From: Candidatus Woesearchaeota archaeon
Lineage (GTDB): Archaea > Nanobdellota > Nanobdellia > SCGC-AAA011-G17 > PNOQ01
Length of the DNA stretch: 64,000 nucleotides
Assembly: GCA_964497715.1 (NCBI GenBank)
Contig: CAZCDH010000001.1
Span: forward strand, 25,343 to 89,342
Direction of reading: 5' to 3'
A program made the translations under genes and the position numbers. This document shows positions 1 through 20,847 of the stretch, in pieces; within the stretch, counting starts at the first letter, position 1; the number at the start of each line of letters is the position of its first letter. The notes under the pieces were generated by a model that was not told where the DNA came from, ran no database searches, and was given only the letters and a program-made list of their open reading frames with translations.

Positions 1-686
1 GTTGGACCTCTCGAAGTTATGTCTTCTGTGAAAGTTGCATTTACTCTACTTCCGTCAGGTAGTGCACCATCCAGCAAAGGTGTAGCGTATGAAACATACT
101 GTCCGCACTTTTGAGCCAGTTTTTCAACAAAAGATGCTAACTCACCCATTTTAGTATATTTTACAGAGGTTTTTAAATTTCTGAATTTTCTGTGAACTAT
201 GAAAAGTGGAAACTCTGCACCATTACATTCTATATCTTCAATTAGTTGATCTTGCATTAAAGGTTCTATTCTTCCGAGTCCTACAAAATCTCTATAAATA
301 TAATACATAATTTTCAAATAGGATTCCTTAGTTAGAGTTATACGTAATTCGTTTAGGAGCACTCTAACATTTTTTTCTAAATATTCTATCACTGCCTCGC
401 CTTTTTTAACAGCTAAATAACTTATATTGATTAATTCCCTAACACCTTCTTCAATTAGATTTAGAACTTTCTTTTCCTTTGGCGTTAACTCTGGTTCCCC
501 TACTGTGTAAATTACTTCTTTTTGTTTCTCATCCCAATAGATATGGGCATAAGCGTAAGGTGCTATGAGTGCATATTTGACATTGATTTTTTCTTTTTCA
601 ACATCTTTGAAAACTGGTAATTTTGGTACAAGGTCTAGTTTAAATATTGTTTTCTCTTTTTTGTCTAGTTTTGGCAAATTTTTCAT
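1..686 (-). CDS. Type IV pilus/archaellum assembly ATPase (FlaI/PilB/VirB11 family), N-terminal part; the C-terminus runs off the window start.
   Basis: Hand translation of the minus strand from the ATG at 686-684 gives MKNLPKLDKKEKTIFKLDLVPKLPVFKDVEKEKINVKYALIAPYAYAHIYWDEKQKEVIYTVGEPELTPKEKKVLNLIEEG...MQDQLIEDIECNGAEFPLFIVHRKF...LAQKCGQYVSYATPLLDGALPDGSRVNATF. These are the N-terminal domain motifs of archaeal FlaI/GspE-type ATPases (YxxIxYDEK, YxVxEPxLTxEE, EDIxCNG, PxLDAxLPDGSRV). The ORF was not in the supplied track because it runs off the window. Its TAATG junction couples it to the upstream pilin gene. Confidence 0.75.
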   Translation of the reverse strand, partial: MKNLPKLDKKEKTIFKLDLVPKLPVFKDVEKEKINVKYALIAPYAYAHIYWDEKQKEVIYTVGEPELTPKEKKVLNLIEEGVRELINISYLAVKKGEAVIEYLEKNVRVLLNELRITLTKESYLKIMYYIYRDFVGLGRIEPLMQDQLIEDIECNGAEFPLFIVHRKFRNLKTSVKYTKMGELASFVEKLAQKCGQYVSYATPLLDGALPDGSRVNATFTEDITSRGP

Positions 687-1189
687 TATGATAAATCCTC
701 CAAGTGGATTTCATTATTTCCTCTGTTCTGGATAGCTATTCTGTGTTTCCCAGAGATTGGAAGAAATCCATCATAAGTTATATTGATTGAAGTGGTAGAG
801 TAGTCTAGCTCTAAACTAACCAAGTAATGGTCCCCTTCTTTTAGTGTTAATAATCTTAGATTCCCATGTTCGATAGTGATACCAGGTTCTGATAGAAGTG
901 CTGAGGTTTCCATATCCCATTTAATCTTTTCACCACCTGTGTCAATGTCAAATATCCCTTCACTAATTCCCATACTTATTACATCTGAGGCTCCTGGCCC
1001 TTGATTGTTTACTGATCTTATTACTCCATCTAAATTAGATAGTAGTTCTTCTGTTTGAATTAGAGTATGCCTGTCCCTCATCTTCTCTATAACTGGCATA
1101 CCAACTGCTAGAATTAAAGTTATTATTACTATTCCGAGTGCCATGTATAGCACTGCCGATATCCAAATTTGTCCTTTCCTCTTTTTCAT
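686..1189 (-). CDS. Class III signal-peptide (prepilin-like) protein, pilin/FlaG-like.
   Basis: The N-terminus MKKRKGQIWISAVLYMALGIVIITLILAV is a basic stretch, then a G|Q prepilin-peptidase-type site, then a hydrophobic helix. It is last in a run of five such genes and translationally coupled to the ATPase. Confidence 0.5.
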   Translation of the reverse strand: MKKRKGQIWISAVLYMALGIVIITLILAVGMPVIEKMRDRHTLIQTEELLSNLDGVIRSVNNQGPGASDVISMGISEGIFDIDTGGEKIKWDMETSALLSEPGITIEHGNLRLLTLKEGDHYLVSLELDYSTTSINITYDGFLPISGKHRIAIQNRGNNEIHLEDLS

Positions 1190-2782: not shown

Positions 2783-3478
2783 TTATGATGAAATAATCTG
2801 TTGGAGCACTCCTATAAATCTTTCTCCAAAAGTTTCTTCCCCTCCTCTTAATTTTGATCGCGGTGTCCAAGTTTCGTCACCTGTTCCAAGATTTATTACC
2901 TCTTCTCCAGAAGCAGTTCGTATTATAACTTTGAAGTCTGGACCGCCGCTTAAATTGAAATTATGTAAAAATCCACTAATAGATAGGTTCATTTGTTCCC
3001 CTGCAGCCCCAGATTGAGTGTACCAAGTTTTTCCTAAATCTCCAACAGATGTAGGAGTTTGGTGGGCAAAATCTTTGCCTCCGACTTCTAGAGTTATTGT
3101 TTGATTAATTACTTGACTTGTTGGAAAAATTATAGAATTACCATAATTTATAGTAGTCTCATCAAGATAATTAGAAACAGTTACATTTGTACCATTGCTG
3201 AAAACATAAACAAGTTCAACATGTGGATCTCTTTGTTTTGCATATTCTAAAAAAGACTTTGTGAAATTATCCAGTTTGTCTTCAATATTTTCAACATCTT
3301 CATCTTCTATCGCATAGTTTATTATCTTTGTAGATTCAGTTATATAATTCTGAGATAGGTCATCAAAATCTTCAAAAAGAATACTTTTTCTTAGAGTGTT
3401 TGATTCCATTGTGATAGCATATGTTGCCATAGCTAAAACTAAAACTGTGATTATGTAAAACTGGCCCCTTTTATTCAT
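2783..3478 (-). CDS. Pilin-like protein with class III signal peptide (KRG|Q); first gene of the pilus operon.
   Basis: The N-terminus is MNKRGQFYIITVLVLAMATYAITM. The Asn/Ser/Thr-rich mature part has N-x-S/T sequons typical of glycosylated archaeal pilins. Confidence 0.5.
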   Translation of the reverse strand: MNKRGQFYIITVLVLAMATYAITMESNTLRKSILFEDFDDLSQNYITESTKIINYAIEDEDVENIEDKLDNFTKSFLEYAKQRDPHVELVYVFSNGTNVTVSNYLDETTINYGNSIIFPTSQVINQTITLEVGGKDFAHQTPTSVGDLGKTWYTQSGAAGEQMNLSISGFLHNFNLSGGPDFKVIIRTASGEEVINLGTGDETWTPRSKLRGGEETFGERFIGVLQQIISS

Positions 3479-3494
3479 AGAGTAATTATTAATT

Positions 3495-3520
3495 TCACTT
3501 ATATAAATATCTTTTTGTTT
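3495..3520 (-). promoter_or_regulatory. Candidate archaeal TATA box/BRE for the pilin operon.
   Basis: The AT-rich element cttatataaatat lies about 25-35 nt upstream of the ATG at 3478. That spacing fits a leaderless archaeal transcript. Confidence 0.3.
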
Positions 3521-3542
3521 TAAAAGCCTTGAGAACTTATAA

Positions 3543-3614
3543 AGCCCGCGAGGGGATTTGAACCCCCGACCTCAGCCTTACCATGGCTACGCTCTACCTC
3601 TGAGCCACGCGGGC
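3543..3614 (-). tRNA. tRNA-Thr (anticodon GGU).
   Basis: The reverse complement GCCCGCGTGGCTCAGAGGTAGAGCGTAGCCATGGTAAGGCTGAGGTCGGGGGTTCAAATCCCCTCGCGGGC folds as a cloverleaf. It has a 7-bp acceptor, a GGTTCAAATCC T-arm, the anticodon loop AUGGUAA (so GGU), and no encoded CCA. Confidence 0.8.
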
Positions 3615-4235
3615 AATTTTTGATAAATGTCTTTTGTTAGAAAATCCAATTAATTTCATCCATCTTCTTAATTGTTTATGACCATAGATCTCTATCGAAT
3701 AACAATCATTATGATTTGGATTTTTATAGTTTCTCTTATAGCTATATATTTTAAAATCTTTCGATAAATAAGTCATTAATTGACTATGTAACCTTTTACT
3801 AATTGTATGAAATATTATTCTAGGATAAGGTTTATTGTATCTTTTTCTTTTGTCTAAAAATACTCCACCATCTGTATCGAATAAACCTCTTATTAAAGCA
3901 TGTAAATTTTTTTTATTATCAAATATTTTATCAGGAATATAAATTATTTTTGCTTTTTTGTTTGAATTTAAGTTGAAAAACAACTTTAAAAAATAATATA
4001 ATCTCTTTGAATAGATATTAACTCTAATTGCGTTTTTTCCATTAACTTTCTTAATAGATGTTTTTGCCATAAATAATTTATTTATTGTTGGCCCAATAGT
4101 TTTCGCATAATATTCCAGATCTAATGTTGAATCTCCAGAAAATTGAATAAGATAGTTACATCCTTTTGAGTTATAAGTGCACCCATCTCCCATGTATGCT
4201 CCAATAACCTCGCATAAATCTTCAGTTAATTCCAT
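3594..4235 (-). CDS. LAGLIDADG homing endonuclease, double-motif single-chain type.
   Basis: It carries two LAGLIDADG motifs, LCEVIGAYMGDGC and LIRGLFDTDGGVF, and is 213 aa long. Its last 21 nt (3594-3614) overlap the 5' acceptor/D-arm of tRNA-Thr. Confidence 0.75.
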   Translation of the reverse strand: MELTEDLCEVIGAYMGDGCTYNSKGCNYLIQFSGDSTLDLEYYAKTIGPTINKLFMAKTSIKKVNGKNAIRVNIYSKRLYYFLKLFFNLNSNKKAKIIYIPDKIFDNKKNLHALIRGLFDTDGGVFLDKRKRYNKPYPRIIFHTISKRLHSQLMTYLSKDFKIYSYKRNYKNPNHNDCYSIEIYGHKQLRRWMKLIGFSNKRHLSKIARVAQR

Positions 4236-4303
4236 ATAATAAAACTAGAAATTCATTTTATATACTCTTTTAGTGGCCTTGACATCATGACAAAATTAAA
4301 AAA

Positions 4304-4389
4304 TGAGGAAGAAGGGATTTGAACCCTCGTAGGCACTAAGCCACAGGATTTTAAGTCCTGCCCGTTTGACCAGACTCCGGCACCTCCTC
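4304..4389 (-). tRNA. tRNA-Leu (anticodon UAA).
   Basis: The reverse complement GAGGAGGTGCCGGAGTCTGGTCAAACGGGCAGGACTTAAAATCCTGTGGCTTAGTGCCTACGAGGGTTCAAATCCCTTCTTCCTCA has a long variable arm and the anticodon loop CUUAAAA (UAA). Confidence 0.75.
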
Positions 4390-4433
4390 ATATCGTAAGT
4401 TATAATCTGAAAACAGTTTATAAGATTTACTGA

Positions 4434-17812: not shown

Positions 17813-18124
17813 ATGAAATCTAAGCTAAATAAGGAATATTTTGAAGAACTAGTGAATGACCATTTTAGAAATGTGCGTAGTACAATTTTTGGTTTTACTA
17901 TTGGAGTATTCGAAGAATCTGTGTCTGGACCAGATGGAGGATTAGAAAATGTTGTTGAAGGTTTTGCATATACCACAGGATATTTTACTGTAGAAAAACT
18001 ATCTCACAAATTATTAAGAGGATATAATATGAAAGACGATGTATCCGGACCTTATTTTTTTGGAGGATTCTTAGCAGGACAGACTATCACAAATTATCTT
18101 AAGAAAAAAATAATAAATAGTTAA
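17813..18124 (+). CDS. Hypothetical protein (103 aa).
   Basis: ORF only. Confidence 0.3.
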   Translation: MKSKLNKEYFEELVNDHFRNVRSTIFGFTIGVFEESVSGPDGGLENVVEGFAYTTGYFTVEKLSHKLLRGYNMKDDVSGPYFFGGFLAGQTITNYLKKKIINS

Positions 18125-19224
18125 TTAATTACTTCTGTTTCAACTTTATCCAAATTAAAATAATTACTTGAATAATTGTATGCTCCAGCATTTATGAAAG
18201 TGATTTTATCTCCAACGTTTATTTCTTTGTCAAAATAAACTTTGTATCTGAAAATATCTAAAGAATCTGGAGTAAATCCTTTGATTGTGTAGCAAAATCC
18301 CTCTTCTTTCTCATTTTCAACTAATAATCTTATATGTGCAACGAAAGTGTCCATCGCAGAATTATATACAGAAGCATTTACAATGACATTATTATCATAA
18401 ACATTTGTAACTTCGCACTCTAATTTTATTGATGGAGCTGCAATAAATCTGCCTGGTTCGATTATTGTAGTGATTTCTTTCTCATTCAAGAATTTTTTCA
18501 GTTCTCTGATTTTATTAAAAATAATTTCTTTTACTTCTTTTCTGAAATTCTTATACTCTGCAGGTATTCCTCCACCTATATTCACAATATCTATCTTTGA
18601 AAAATCTTCTATTGAATCTTTTAACTCTTCTTTTAGATTCCATTCAGAGACATTTTGAGTTTTTCTGTGAAAATGGATACCTAGCTTCTCTATGTTATTG
18701 TTATTTTTTAATTCTTTTAGTAATTCATTGATTCTTGAGCTTGAAAATCCGAAAACAAAGTGTTTCCCTGTGTGAATTGTGTGCTCTCTTAGTTTCATCC
18801 TTAGGAGCAAATTAATTTTTCTGTTTTCTTTTAAGAGTAATCTGAGATCGTTTTCATTATCAACAACGAAATTATTTACTTCTTTAGGGACCTCTTTGTT
18901 CCCCTGTAAGAAAAACCAAACTTTTTCTTTATTTTCTAATAATTCTAAGTTCTGTTTCGAATGCACACTCATAAAGCATCGATTCTCTAAGATTTTGGCA
19001 ACTTCTATATTAGTTTTAACACTATAAGAAACCTCATCTGCTAGAGATTTCATTATCTCTAAGTGATCTAGTGCTATTTTTTTACTTAAAATAAATCTAG
19101 CTTCCATGATAATCTGGTCAAAAAGTTGACTTTTAAAGGTTTTTATTACGAAGTTCCCTAAAGGATATTCTTTCGATTGATTCAACATAAGATTTATATA
19201 TTTCAATTGCTCATTAAATGACAT
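18121..19224 (-). CDS. PLP-dependent decarboxylase of the Orn/DAP/Arg decarboxylase (alanine-racemase fold) family; candidate arginine decarboxylase.
   Basis: It has the motifs NIGGGIPAEY and IIEPGRFIAAPS (the EPGR motif), and a candidate PLP-lysine region FVIKTFKS near the N-terminus. The neighbouring agmatinase and deoxyhypusine synthase suggest polyamine synthesis. Confidence 0.5.
   Translation of the reverse strand: MSFNEQLKYINLMLNQSKEYPLGNFVIKTFKSQLFDQIIMEARFILSKKIALDHLEIMKSLADEVSYSVKTNIEVAKILENRCFMSVHSKQNLELLENKEKVWFFLQGNKEVPKEVNNFVVDNENDLRLLLKENRKINLLLRMKLREHTIHTGKHFVFGFSSSRINELLKELKNNNNIEKLGIHFHRKTQNVSEWNLKEELKDSIEDFSKIDIVNIGGGIPAEYKNFRKEVKEIIFNKIRELKKFLNEKEITTIIEPGRFIAAPSIKLECEVTNVYDNNVIVNASVYNSAMDTFVAHIRLLVENEKEEGFCYTIKGFTPDSLDIFRYKVYFDKEINVGDKITFINAGAYNYSSNYFNLDKVETEVIN
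19134..19178. repeat. 45-bp perfect direct repeat, copy 1. Copy 2 is at 20050..20094.
   Basis: The sequence taaaggtttttattacgaagttccctaaaggatattctttcgatt is identical at both sites. This copy lies in the 5' coding region of the decarboxylase gene. Confidence 0.9.
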
Positions 19225-19562
19225 TAACTATAGTTCAGGAGATAAATAAAATGGATCAATCTTTAGAAAAAATGTTAGGTAATGTAATTGTACTAAGAGA
19301 GATAAAGAGTAGAAGTTATCAAACTATAGAATCTTGTATGTCAGTAACAACTGATATATATTGTAGCGATAAACCATTGAAACCTAGTTTTACAAAAAAT
19401 ACTGCATATTATCCGTTAACAGAAAATGGTCAAGTTGGTATAACTCACCACCCTGAAGGATTAGGCAAATTAAAATATAATGAGGAAGGAACAGAGTATG
19501 GAGTTCCACTTATCGATATCTTGGATAAACCATTGGAAAAATGGAGAATTGATAAAAAGTAA
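19218..19562 (+). CDS. Hypothetical protein (114 aa).
   Basis: ORF between the two 45-bp repeat copies. No recognisable domain. Confidence 0.3.
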   Translation: MTLTIVQEINKMDQSLEKMLGNVIVLREIKSRSYQTIESCMSVTTDIYCSDKPLKPSFTKNTAYYPLTENGQVGITHHPEGLGKLKYNEEGTEYGVPLIDILDKPLEKWRIDKK

Positions 19563-19637
19563 GATTTATAAAGATTATAGAGCATAATTTCTTGCCTGAG
19601 CAAGGTGTACTAACATACATGGATGCTCTAACAGGTA

Positions 19638-19898
19638 ATGCTGAGCCCCGTCCTTGTTGAAGATTTGAACCTTGCAGAGGCACATTATTTTATTCTAATA
19701 CTTAGTAGTTTGGATAACAAATCGATGGAAAAAGTTAACATTTTAGGGACAGGAAACGAAGGTTCGAGAAATTATTTTACATTTGAGAAGAATTTAGAAG
19801 TCTTCTCCCCATTTCTTAATTTTCTAAAGAATGTTGATTTAGAGAAAAACAAATCTGCAAGTTTTTGTTCTTTTGATGAAAAAATTAGATTTAACTAA
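19638..19898 (+). CDS. Hypothetical protein (86 aa).
   Basis: ORF between the two repeat copies. Weak. Confidence 0.2.
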   Translation: MLSPVLVEDLNLAEAHYFILILSSLDNKSMEKVNILGTGNEGSRNYFTFEKNLEVFSPFLNFLKNVDLEKNKSASFCSFDEKIRFN

Positions 19899-20048
19899 TA
19901 CTACAGATATTTATGAACATATAGAAAATGAGAACTAGGATATTGGCCTCTTTTTTGGTGAAAAGGCATTGTAGTTGTGATAAGATGTGATTTGAAAAGA
20001 GAAAGATTAGTTAATCTGATAAAAGAGATTGCAAATTTTGAATAAAAA

Positions 20049-20606
20049 CTAAAGGTTTTTATTACGAAGTTCCCTAAAGGATATTCTTTCGATTAGATCT
20101 ATCGGAGTTACTTGTGGACTCCAAACTTCTGGAGCTTTGTAACTCCCATCGTAATCTTCTAAAGGTATTGAAGAACGTGTACACTCTTCCATGAATTTTT
20201 TTTCATAAGAACTAACTAAATCTTGCAGATCTTTATCTACTTCTTCTTCTCTAAAATAGACTTGATCATAATGCTTCATAAGGTTAATATTTAAGTCATC
20301 TTTGAATCTTCTTGGTGAAAAAAGATAGTGGTCCCTCACAAATGCTCCAGATTGCCAAGTAACTGGAAATTTTAAAACTGCTTCATAAGAAGTATATTGC
20401 CATAATCTATGAGTTATGTATGATTCCTTCCATCCATTGTATTTTTCTGTAGGAATTCCTACAATGTACTCATCAAACTTGATAGTATCTTTCAAATCAT
20501 CTAAATCGCCTTGATTAAAATTATCAGGACGAGTTTTAGGCAATAAGAACCCAGAGTTCTGTATACTTTCCCAGTTTTCTTCAGAAGTGAAGTGTATTAT
20601 CTCCAT
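20049..20606 (-). CDS. Hypothetical protein (185 aa).
   Basis: ORF with mixed-charge composition. Its C-terminal tail is encoded by repeat copy 2. No recognisable domain. Confidence 0.4.
   Translation of the reverse strand: MEIIHFTSEENWESIQNSGFLLPKTRPDNFNQGDLDDLKDTIKFDEYIVGIPTEKYNGWKESYITHRLWQYTSYEAVLKFPVTWQSGAFVRDHYLFSPRRFKDDLNINLMKHYDQVYFREEEVDKDLQDLVSSYEKKFMEECTRSSIPLEDYDGSYKAPEVWSPQVTPIDLIERISFRELRNKNL
20050..20094. repeat. 45-bp perfect direct repeat, copy 2.
   Basis: Identical to 19134-19178. Here it encodes the C-terminal 14 aa of the 185-aa ORF in a different reading frame. Confidence 0.9.
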
Positions 20607-20685
20607 ATTATTAAGTGCACTAACTAAAAACTTATAAATGAATATGTTGAATAATTTTTTACTAATTTAAAGAGGATTTTAAAAA

Positions 20686-20844
20686 TGACAGTAGAATTTG
20701 ACGAATTTAAAGGAAATAAAATAATAAAATTAATTGGTGAACAAGACACGGAATCTAAATGGCCTTTTAGCTTTGGAAAAATGAAGGCTAAGTTAATAGT
20801 AGAAAACTTCGAAGAAATCAAAAAGTTTGCTGAACAGGAAGAAT
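20686..20844 (+). CDS. Small hypothetical protein of 52 aa. It is not in the ORF track.
   Basis: The ORF MTVEFDEFKGNKIIKLIGEQDTESKWPFSFGKMKAKLIVENFEEIKKFAEQEE has an AGAGGA RBS 8 nt upstream. The tracked antisense 65-aa ORF at 20624..20821 is hydrophobic and low-complexity and is probably spurious. Confidence 0.4.
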
Positions 20845-20847
20845 AAT

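Follow-up and report, generated by a model that had tools for sequence, protein, structure and literature searches.

A perfect 45-bp direct repeat around a small-protein gene and a structured RNA marks a probable insertion scar between two genes of a marine Woesearchaeota population

In a marine population of Woesearchaeota, a gene for an arginine decarboxylase-like enzyme lies in a coherent neighbourhood of agmatinase, decarboxylase and deoxyhypusine synthase (DHS) genes, as the initial annotation of this DNA had recognized. We analysed this locus in a 64,000-nucleotide stretch of a Candidatus Woesearchaeota archaeon genome (contig CAZCDH010000001.1, positions 25,343 to 89,342; hereafter the window). 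The decarboxylase gene is separated from a gene for a 185-residue protein, orf185, by 871 bp that are bracketed by two perfect copies of a 45-bp sequence. Between the copies lie a small-protein gene, orf114, and a predicted gene for a conserved structured RNA of ∼91 nt. The arrangement probably records a single insertion that duplicated the last 45 bp of orf185, and in what follows we describe the repeat, the two flanking genes, the inserted DNA and the corresponding loci of related genomes before weighing how it could have arisen.

The window contains precisely two copies of the 45-mer TAAAGGTTTTTATTACGAAGTTCCCTAAAGGATATTCTTTCGATT, at positions 19134-19178 (R1) and 20050-20094 (R2), so that the perfect repeat first reported from this DNA is confirmed. 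Its length is exactly 45 bp, the flanking bases being unlike on either side of the two copies. No third copy was found in the window with up to 3 mismatches, and allowing up to 14 mismatches disclosed no degenerate one either there or in adjoining DNA from this population; the 45-mer was present in none of 100 dinucleotide-preserving shuffles of the window. In L045 (positions 3193-3215), an unrelated contig of visibly higher G+C content, 23-24 nt agree exactly with the conserved half of the repeat and lie within a few hundred bp of a gene for ribosomal protein S15; this was judged a chance match. Exact-protein look-ups led to 16 contigs of the same population, originating from separate JGI and ENA assemblies. 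Both exact copies are present at a spacing of 916 bp in 14 of them, including JGI Ga0105000, Ga0118726, Ga0115656 and Ga0171653 and the ENA SUTE22-1 series, and one further contig begins between the two copies. The last, L014 (ENA ERZ23498963, SCRA20-1), is otherwise identical but has a 14-bp deletion, AACTTCGTAATAAA, within R2. The presumed origin of the window from a metagenome assembly, its sequence recurring in metagenome contigs, is all that speaks for regarding the pair as an assembly artefact, either a chimeric join or a collapsed repeat. Since 14 independently assembled contigs, from differing samples, projects and assemblers, show both copies in one and the same structure, the artefact explanation is effectively refuted and we give it next to no credence.

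The decarboxylase is a fold-type III pyridoxal phosphate (PLP) enzyme resembling arginine and ornithine decarboxylases (Pfam Orn_Arg_deC_N and Orn_DAP_Arg_deC). It had been called as a 367-residue open reading frame (ORF) on the reverse strand, 18121-19224, and R1 had consequently been placed inside its coding sequence, with the two copies of the repeat falling in two genes and in different frames. However, the Pfam match begins only at residue 114, and nine related Woesearchaeota loci align to the 367-residue ORF only from residue 40 or 42. Seven of the related loci extend to the 5' end, and in each of them the decarboxylase begins with M-[AK]-[KR]-F-[IV]-L, its methionine equivalent to M40 of the window ORF, with in-frame stop codons directly upstream of this start. 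Among 2352 homologues of the decarboxylase, the closest are mostly 325-345 residues long and most often 328, and products of 366-367 residues are confined to this population, in which all cluster members have that length. Because the orthologues start at M40, comparison assigns the decarboxylase a true coding sequence of 328 codons (18121-19107, reverse strand) beginning at the ATG at 19107, and places R1 outside the gene. The 39 upstream codons (19108-19224, reverse strand) are a spurious extension, found only in this population; this false N-terminus begins within the insert, traverses R1 and is present in every contig of the population. R1 had also been thought to include the PLP-lysine region. 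The conserved motif SYS[VF]K[TS], which we take to be the PLP-lysine motif of fold-type III decarboxylases, occupies residues 66-71 of the 367-residue ORF, ∼30 residues past M40 and outside the repeat; sequence alignments to PDB entries, by which we sought to place the lysine, span only residues 115 onwards. With the orthologue start at M40 and the motif outside the repeat, both the coding and the PLP-lysine assignments of R1 were discarded.

R1 (19134-19178, reverse strand), which duplicates the 3' end of orf185 but does not code for protein, is situated 27 nt upstream of the start codon of the decarboxylase. Of the 53 long ORFs of the window, 26 have a TATA-like box at -33 to -28 relative to the ATG, a sharp peak that indicates leaderless transcripts. 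The decarboxylase has such a box, TTTAAAA (19131-19137, reverse strand), which begins at -30 from the ATG, the commonest place for such boxes in this genome, and draws four of its bases from R1 and three from the flank. The sequence ctttaaaag stands at -29/-30 of the decarboxylase gene in L018, L019 and L022, and cttaaaaa at the same position in L021 and L024, these five being the relatives that have intergenic DNA upstream of the gene. R1 is thereby best read from the sequence as promoter-region DNA of the decarboxylase, not as coding DNA.

R2 (20050-20094, reverse strand) forms the 3' end of orf185 (20049-20606, reverse strand), a conserved orphan gene with homologues at 81, 66 and 46% identity. 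Translation agrees with what had been said of this copy: it encodes the final 14 residues (172-185), IERISFRELRNKNL, together with the TA of the stop codon, which base 20049 of the insert completes as TAG. The orf185 product has no match in Pfam, NCBIfam or PHROG, and its structure prediction was unusable, with a predicted local distance difference test score (pLDDT) of 41. Its orthologue P0002 (81% identical) ends in the identical tail ISFRELRNKNL, and in the sister-lineage loci L026-28, discussed below, the orf185 orthologue ends in one 45-mer copy that has diverged at 8 of 45 positions. Because the tail is kept in P0002 and one diverged copy stands in L026-28, R2 can be identified as the ancestral coding 3' end and native copy, and R1 as the extra, non-coding duplicate. 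The stop codon contexts, CTT TAA in L026, CTT TAA for R1 with its flanking base 19133 and CTT TAG for R2 with the insert, fit a model in which R2 retains the old left context and R1 the old right context, with 871 bp between them. Upstream, orf185 forms a divergent pair with orf53 (20685-20846, forward strand), and a pairing of orf185 with a divergent ORF of 52-53 residues is retained in L026 and L029, whose neighbours differ. By eye, the orf53 product resembles small PC4/YdbC-like single-stranded DNA-binding proteins, and it has no Pfam match at E<=0.1.

A perfect 9-5-9 palindrome, AATAAAAAC-CTTTA-GTTTTTATT (20041-20063, reverse strand), lies across the junction between R2 and the insert. A 9-bp inverted copy of repeat bases 32-40 directly follows the repeat, and the stop codon of orf185 begins at the end of the palindrome's loop and finishes on the first base of the 3' arm. 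The palindrome is unique in the window and was found in none of 100 shuffles, and perfect hairpins of at least 8 bp are seen at only 2 of the 53 gene ends and in 0.7% of 70-nt windows drawn at random. The deletion in L014 (at its position 2828, corresponding to about 20057-20070 of the window, between two AAC triplets) abolishes this palindrome and lengthens the orf185 product from 185 to 193 residues, the last 6 residues being swapped for 14 others. This variant bears on the idea that the 45-mer is a selected two-copy cis-element, either a regulator site or an RNA element, coordinating orf185 and the decarboxylase. The perfect identity of the copies, and the position of R1 against the decarboxylase promoter, would agree with such a function. 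However, a natural variant dispenses with 14 bp of R2, no relative, the sister lineage included, has more than one copy or any copy upstream of the decarboxylase, no further copy exists in the 64 kb, and the 45-mer has no significant internal symmetry. We therefore regard a regulatory origin of the pair as very improbable.

The inserted segment of 871 bp between the copies (19179-20049, forward strand) has no counterpart at this position in relatives, and neither blastn nor tblastx matched it to any of 18 related loci or to other parts of the window. Its ORFs had all been taken for orphans. This does not hold for orf114, which belongs to a conserved Nanoarchaeota/Woesearchaeota family and is accompanied by a conserved structured RNA. 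The orf114 gene was called from 19218, but its likely start is at 19251 (19251-19562, forward strand, 103 residues), with a GGAG at 19238-19241, 7 bases before the ATG, and TTTATATA at 19193-19200. A search of 1.8 billion sequences returned 27 family representatives at E<=1e-3, and a second search 45 clusters; the three members with an organism name come from metagenome-assembled genomes (MAGs) of Nanoarchaeota, Patescibacteria and Bacteroidota, one each. The family shares the motif T.Y..L...G[IV][TS]HH..GLGKLK...EYG[VI]P..DI..KPL..WRIDKK, and the C-terminal 58 residues of the orf114 protein are predicted to form a small beta-sheet domain (pLDDT >90). No match was obtained in Pfam, NCBIfam or PHROGs, and a fold search with the model retrieved generic beta-sheet matches only (Z <= 6.1). 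The second ORF, orf86 (19638-19898, forward strand), overlaps the RNA with its first 15 codons and is the sole member of its cluster; as called, it is probably not a gene. The remaining 350 bp of the insert (19700-20049) are broken into short, frame-shifted ORFs. An 8-bp inverted repeat, tagagcat/atgctcta, had been noted here and is indeed present, at 19578-19585 and 19623-19630; its span starts at 19578 and not at 19581, and homologous loci do not share its first arm.

The predicted RNA (19593-19683, forward strand) stands directly downstream of the orf114-family gene in all members examined (the window, L051, L052, L053, L057, L058 and L063). In the window, a TATA-like box precedes it at 19565-19572 and an oligo-T run follows its 3' end. 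Outside the window it maps to L051 369-459, to L057 5378-5467, to L063 6342-6437 and, as a tandem pair, to L053 5423-5512 and 5586-5676. The consensus structure comprises 22 pairs in three helices, with 96% of the cells paired. Compensatory double changes were seen at 9 pairs, where shuffles gave 3.3 +/- 1.4 and sliding the partners 0-1, and the L063 RNA, which had been left out of model building, scored 101 bits. The forward strand is favoured by 10 G-U cells (pairing of 96.1%, versus 89.1% on the reverse strand), and the conservation of the TATA-like box, ∼29 nt upstream, and of the oligo-T run past the 3' end points the same way. Two loops are conserved, GUGUAC(C/U)AACA and UGAUGAGGAUUUGAA. 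Rfam 15 gave no match at E<=10 for the window segment or L051, and ARAGORN found no tRNA at this position. On visual inspection, a box C/D, H/ACA, hammerhead or tRNA-like nature of the RNA was rejected, the motifs being in the wrong order or unconserved. Supported by covariation and without a match in Rfam, this RNA is a candidate new archaeal RNA family.

Protein gene and RNA occur as a pair in six lineages, including that of the window, in differing genomic contexts. The upstream neighbour is a ∼380-residue protein with a nucleotidyltransferase-like GSx10DxD motif in L052, L053 and L057, and a radical SAM/SPASM enzyme in L063. The ∼380-residue protein of L053 has no sequence match in the PDB, and that of L057 gave a Pol-beta nucleotidyltransferase match below threshold. 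In L053 the pair is located between the ATPase and platform (T2SSF) genes of a type-IV-pilus-like cluster, and the corresponding cluster of the window genome (window positions 3-1189, reverse strand, running off the left end and on into L059 10001-15535) is without it. Because the neighbours vary across loci, the pair must sit in different places in different genomes, and its sequence context suggests that small protein and RNA form a portable, conserved module, each with its own promoter-like box. As to content, the pilus-like cluster consists of a 167-residue protein, a T2SSE ATPase, an ORF of 73-77 residues and two T2SSF proteins.

Related genomes were compared at the same locus. In L020, whose decarboxylase is 75% identical to that of the window, the gene order is HD - GatE - ... 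- DHS - decarboxylase - orf103 - agmatinase - GatD. The DHS gene overlaps the start of the decarboxylase gene with its stop codon, and orf53, orf185, orf86 and orf114 are all absent. With DHS abutting the decarboxylase here and 871 bp lacking a counterpart in the related loci, the early suggestion of an insertion or duplication scar is upheld. A sister lineage is closer (decarboxylase 88% and orf185 81% identical). Its loci L026-28 have the order PmbA/TldD - GatE - DHS - orf53 - orf185 upstream in common with the window, and this synteny stops right after the orf185 stop codon. On the other side, L035-40 resume at the gene pair xerA-decarboxylase, and the genes to the right of the decarboxylase keep the order seen in the window. 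The initial annotation had asked whether relatives lack the inserted DNA and have a single repeat copy: the 871 bp are indeed absent and one diverged copy stands in L026-28, but no empty-site allele was found.

Between these two blocks the sister lineage holds other DNA. A CxxCxxCC protein, a 159-residue ORF and a type III restriction-modification system lie 3' of orf185, and a 287-residue tyrosine recombinase ends 2 bp before the decarboxylase ATG. The cargo preceding this recombinase varies among contigs of the same species, comprising methyltransferase, flavodoxin and HD genes in some and RadC and YgjP in others, and sister contigs from the same sample terminate 187 bp past orf185 and 90 bp before the recombinase gene. 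The recombinase scores 249.6 bits against the NCBIfam archaeal XerA equivalog (cut-off 220) and 216 bits against the integron integrase, below the cut-off of 265. XerA-type recombinase genes were mapped at L035 3088-3951, L036 2877-3740, L041 896-1714 and L017 1103-1963, and xerA ends 2 bp before the decarboxylase ATG in three related lineages. About 62 nt upstream of xerA, with nested inverted repeats GTATTAGA..AACCTT...AAGGTT..TCTAATAC, are conserved and form the edge of the variable DNA; beyond this segment the DNA differs among contigs of one species, and many contigs stop there. With at least three different contents in related lineages, sequence comparison marks the orf185/decarboxylase junction as a recombination or breakpoint hot spot. 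Two side observations concern these loci. The XerA of L017 is identical to that of L035, yet the genes downstream of the decarboxylase differ. In L018, a related Woesearchaeota MAG, a complete DHS gene is accompanied by a second, partial copy (1789-2727 and 3022-3771, ∼300 bp apart); the partial copy covers residues 63-312 at 82% identity to the window protein, and both copies are upstream of the decarboxylase. The 26-nt spacer before the decarboxylase ATG of the window was also considered as a homologue of the xerA 3' end, but the alignment was unconvincing.

The sister locus raises the possibility that the window segment is the remnant of a larger integrated island, cut down to 871 bp by internal deletions and deprived of its recombinase. 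The sister lineage does have an island of at least several kb in the same place, and the far end of this island carries a tyrosine recombinase gene; its genes, among them the type III restriction-modification system, RadC, YgjP and the methyltransferase, differ between contigs, and positions 19700-20049 of the window resemble decayed coding sequence. However, no second copy of the orf185 3' end borders the sister island, none being found near xerA or the decarboxylase in that lineage. Moreover, XerA not only passes its equivalog cut-off but is 87-89% identical between lineages; because this divergence equals that of the decarboxylase, it looks like a core gene and not like the integrase of an element. 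The genes left in the insert, finally, are intact and have their own promoter-like boxes. A decayed island is in our view an improbable source of the segment.

On balance, the locus is best explained, with a probability somewhat above even, as the scar of a single, evolutionarily recent insertion that duplicated 45 bp of its target and is now fixed in the population. Before this event, we infer, orf185 and the decarboxylase gene were adjacent, and the orf185 stop, TAA, probably overlapped the TATA box of the decarboxylase. A segment of 871 bp with a small-protein gene and the gene of its cognate ∼91-nt RNA would then have been inserted at the junction, the final 45 bp of orf185 being duplicated in the process. 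R2 would keep orf185 whole, with its last 14 codons and a stop completed by the first base of the insert, and R1 with the original right flank would keep the TATA-like box, and presumably the transcription factor B recognition element (BRE) too, at -30 of the presumably leaderless decarboxylase gene. The event appears recent relative to speciation because the copies are identical, when the sister orthologue differs at 8 of 45 positions; it appears fixed because all cluster members keep the insertion and the 328-residue decarboxylase expected of an empty site is absent from the protein collection searched.

As to mechanism, we tentatively favour conservative, recombinase-mediated integration of the Campbell type at an att-like site in the orf185 3' end, the enzyme acting in trans, although confidence in this route falls somewhat short of even. 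The repeat terminates within the orf185 stop codon, much as att sites end at the 3' ends of the genes they target; the 9-5-9 palindrome at one junction is improbable by chance; and the hot spot of the sister lineage lies at the same point. Archaeal att sites in protein-coding genes are on record (review PMC8371274). For the att-like mini-element proposed at the outset the picture is mixed: repeats flank the insert and one of them is at the 3' end of orf185, but no integrase, empty site, circle or viral or plasmid relative was found.

Several results weigh against an insertion of this kind. The ORFs of 19108-20847 include no integrase or transposase by Pfam, NCBIfam or PHROGs, and tblastn detected no XerA homologue in the 64-kb window. 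The exact 328-residue decarboxylase is missing among 15 billion proteins, and no sampled genome has orf185 immediately beside the decarboxylase; the adjacency of xerA and decarboxylase in three lineages means that the immediate ancestor may have been more complex. A metagenome scan for the empty junction gave 0 matches, a weak result as the collection missed known filled contigs too; a 23-mer scan of this collection returned three loci, one of them L045 and none from the population of the window. Searches of viral contigs, phage and plasmid records with the repeat, the whole unit and orf114, of the kind that the initial annotation had advised, yielded nothing, and no circular junction or circular form of the unit was found. 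The 45-mer contains no dif-like 11-6-11 dyad, its best arm (7/11) equalling the median of 2000 shuffles. In four other loci of the protein and RNA module that were scanned, no long direct repeats surround it besides the tandem RNA pair. Neither inverted repeats at the insert ends nor an attC-like structure of an integron cassette was seen. No recombinase is encoded by the 916-bp unit itself, and nothing points to its being mobile today.

These negatives are in part what would be expected if no recombinase had been involved and the segment had entered by repair or replication, through template switching, or through capture of a foreign fragment between staggered ends, at a break or stalled fork in the orf185/decarboxylase junction. 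Snap-back synthesis would generate the 9-bp inverted repeat, and re-priming 45 bp upstream the direct duplication. The inverted copy of repeat bases 32-40 resembles a footprint of fold-back priming, no recombinase, terminal inverted repeats or second att-like site turned up anywhere, the cargo looks like ordinary chromosomal genes and not like a selfish element, and the event is unique and fixed. On the other hand, a 45-bp duplication that ends in the stop codon and preserves both neighbours would be a coincidence unless selection filtered the outcome. A donor is also wanting: no copy of the 871 bp exists in the population, the orf114 cluster consists of this locus alone, and neither in the window nor in L059/L061 did the covariance model find another copy of the RNA. 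To our knowledge, templated insertions of such length have not been described in archaea. We consider a repair origin a serious rival, albeit a less likely one.

A bolder version of recombinase-mediated integration would treat the 916-bp unit as a non-autonomous integrative cassette, a ribonucleoprotein (RNP) module of protein and RNA moving among Nanoarchaeota and Woesearchaeota loci and mobilised in trans by a XerA-like host recombinase. The recombinase core could then be a sequence such as AATAAAAA-CCTTTA(G/A)-TTTTTATT at the orf185 3' end. We consider this quite improbable; if true, it would describe a new kind of archaeal mini-element and a new RNP.

Elsewhere in the window, a 213-residue LAGLIDADG-type ORF (3594-4235, reverse strand) lies between tRNA-Leu (4303-4390) and tRNA-Thr (3543-3614). 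It overlaps the tRNA-Thr gene by ∼20 nt, and gene callers recorded it in one of the three contigs covering this region (L061).

Structurally, the scar is fairly ordinary, and its interest resides in the preservation of a gene end and a promoter, in the hot spot at the junction and in the cargo module. It shows how a compact DPANN genome may tolerate an insertion into an intergenic spacer of zero length: where the stop of one gene apparently overlapped the TATA box of the next, duplication of the shared 45 bp would have given each neighbour its own copy. The most useful by-product is the protein and RNA pair, which makes a concrete candidate for a new family of archaeal RNAs and perhaps for a new RNP. 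For annotation, the decarboxylase of this population appears to be mis-called, with a false N-terminus of 39 residues made by the insertion, and orf86 to be called across an RNA gene.

The locus can be compared with several known systems. Templated or snap-back (microhomology-mediated) repair insertions are known mainly from eukaryotes and bacteria. They share with it a short inverted copy at the junction and the duplication of a flank, but differ in that here the duplication is 45 bp, two genes are precisely preserved and 871 bp of apparently functional foreign genes lie inside. Transposons, insertion sequences and casposons likewise leave an exact target duplication on either side of the insertion. 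However, their target-site duplications measure 2-15 bp, whereas the present one is 45 bp long and is accompanied by no terminal inverted repeats and no transposase or casposase. Integrative mobile elements exploiting Xer recombination (IMEX) at dif offer a further likeness, since an element without recombinase would rely on the tyrosine recombinase of its host and the sister lineages have a XerA gene at the equivalent position. Xer/dif recombination exists in archaea, and dif is defined by two ∼11-bp inverted arms with a 6-bp spacer (PMC2958812); here, in contrast, the 45-mer lacks a dif-like dyad and the window a XerA gene. Elements bounded by attL and attR usually target tRNA genes and occasionally protein-coding genes (review PMC8371274). 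The present unit differs from them in its size of 916 bp, in having no integrase, whether whole or split (SSV type), in that neither an attB-only allele nor a circular form or extrachromosomal relative came to light, and in a cargo that elsewhere sits among chromosomal genes. It resembles them in the perfect direct repeats of a few tens of bp around foreign DNA, in the position of one repeat at the 3' end of a conserved gene that is left intact, and in an inverted-repeat core at one junction, at a point that is a hot spot in related genomes.

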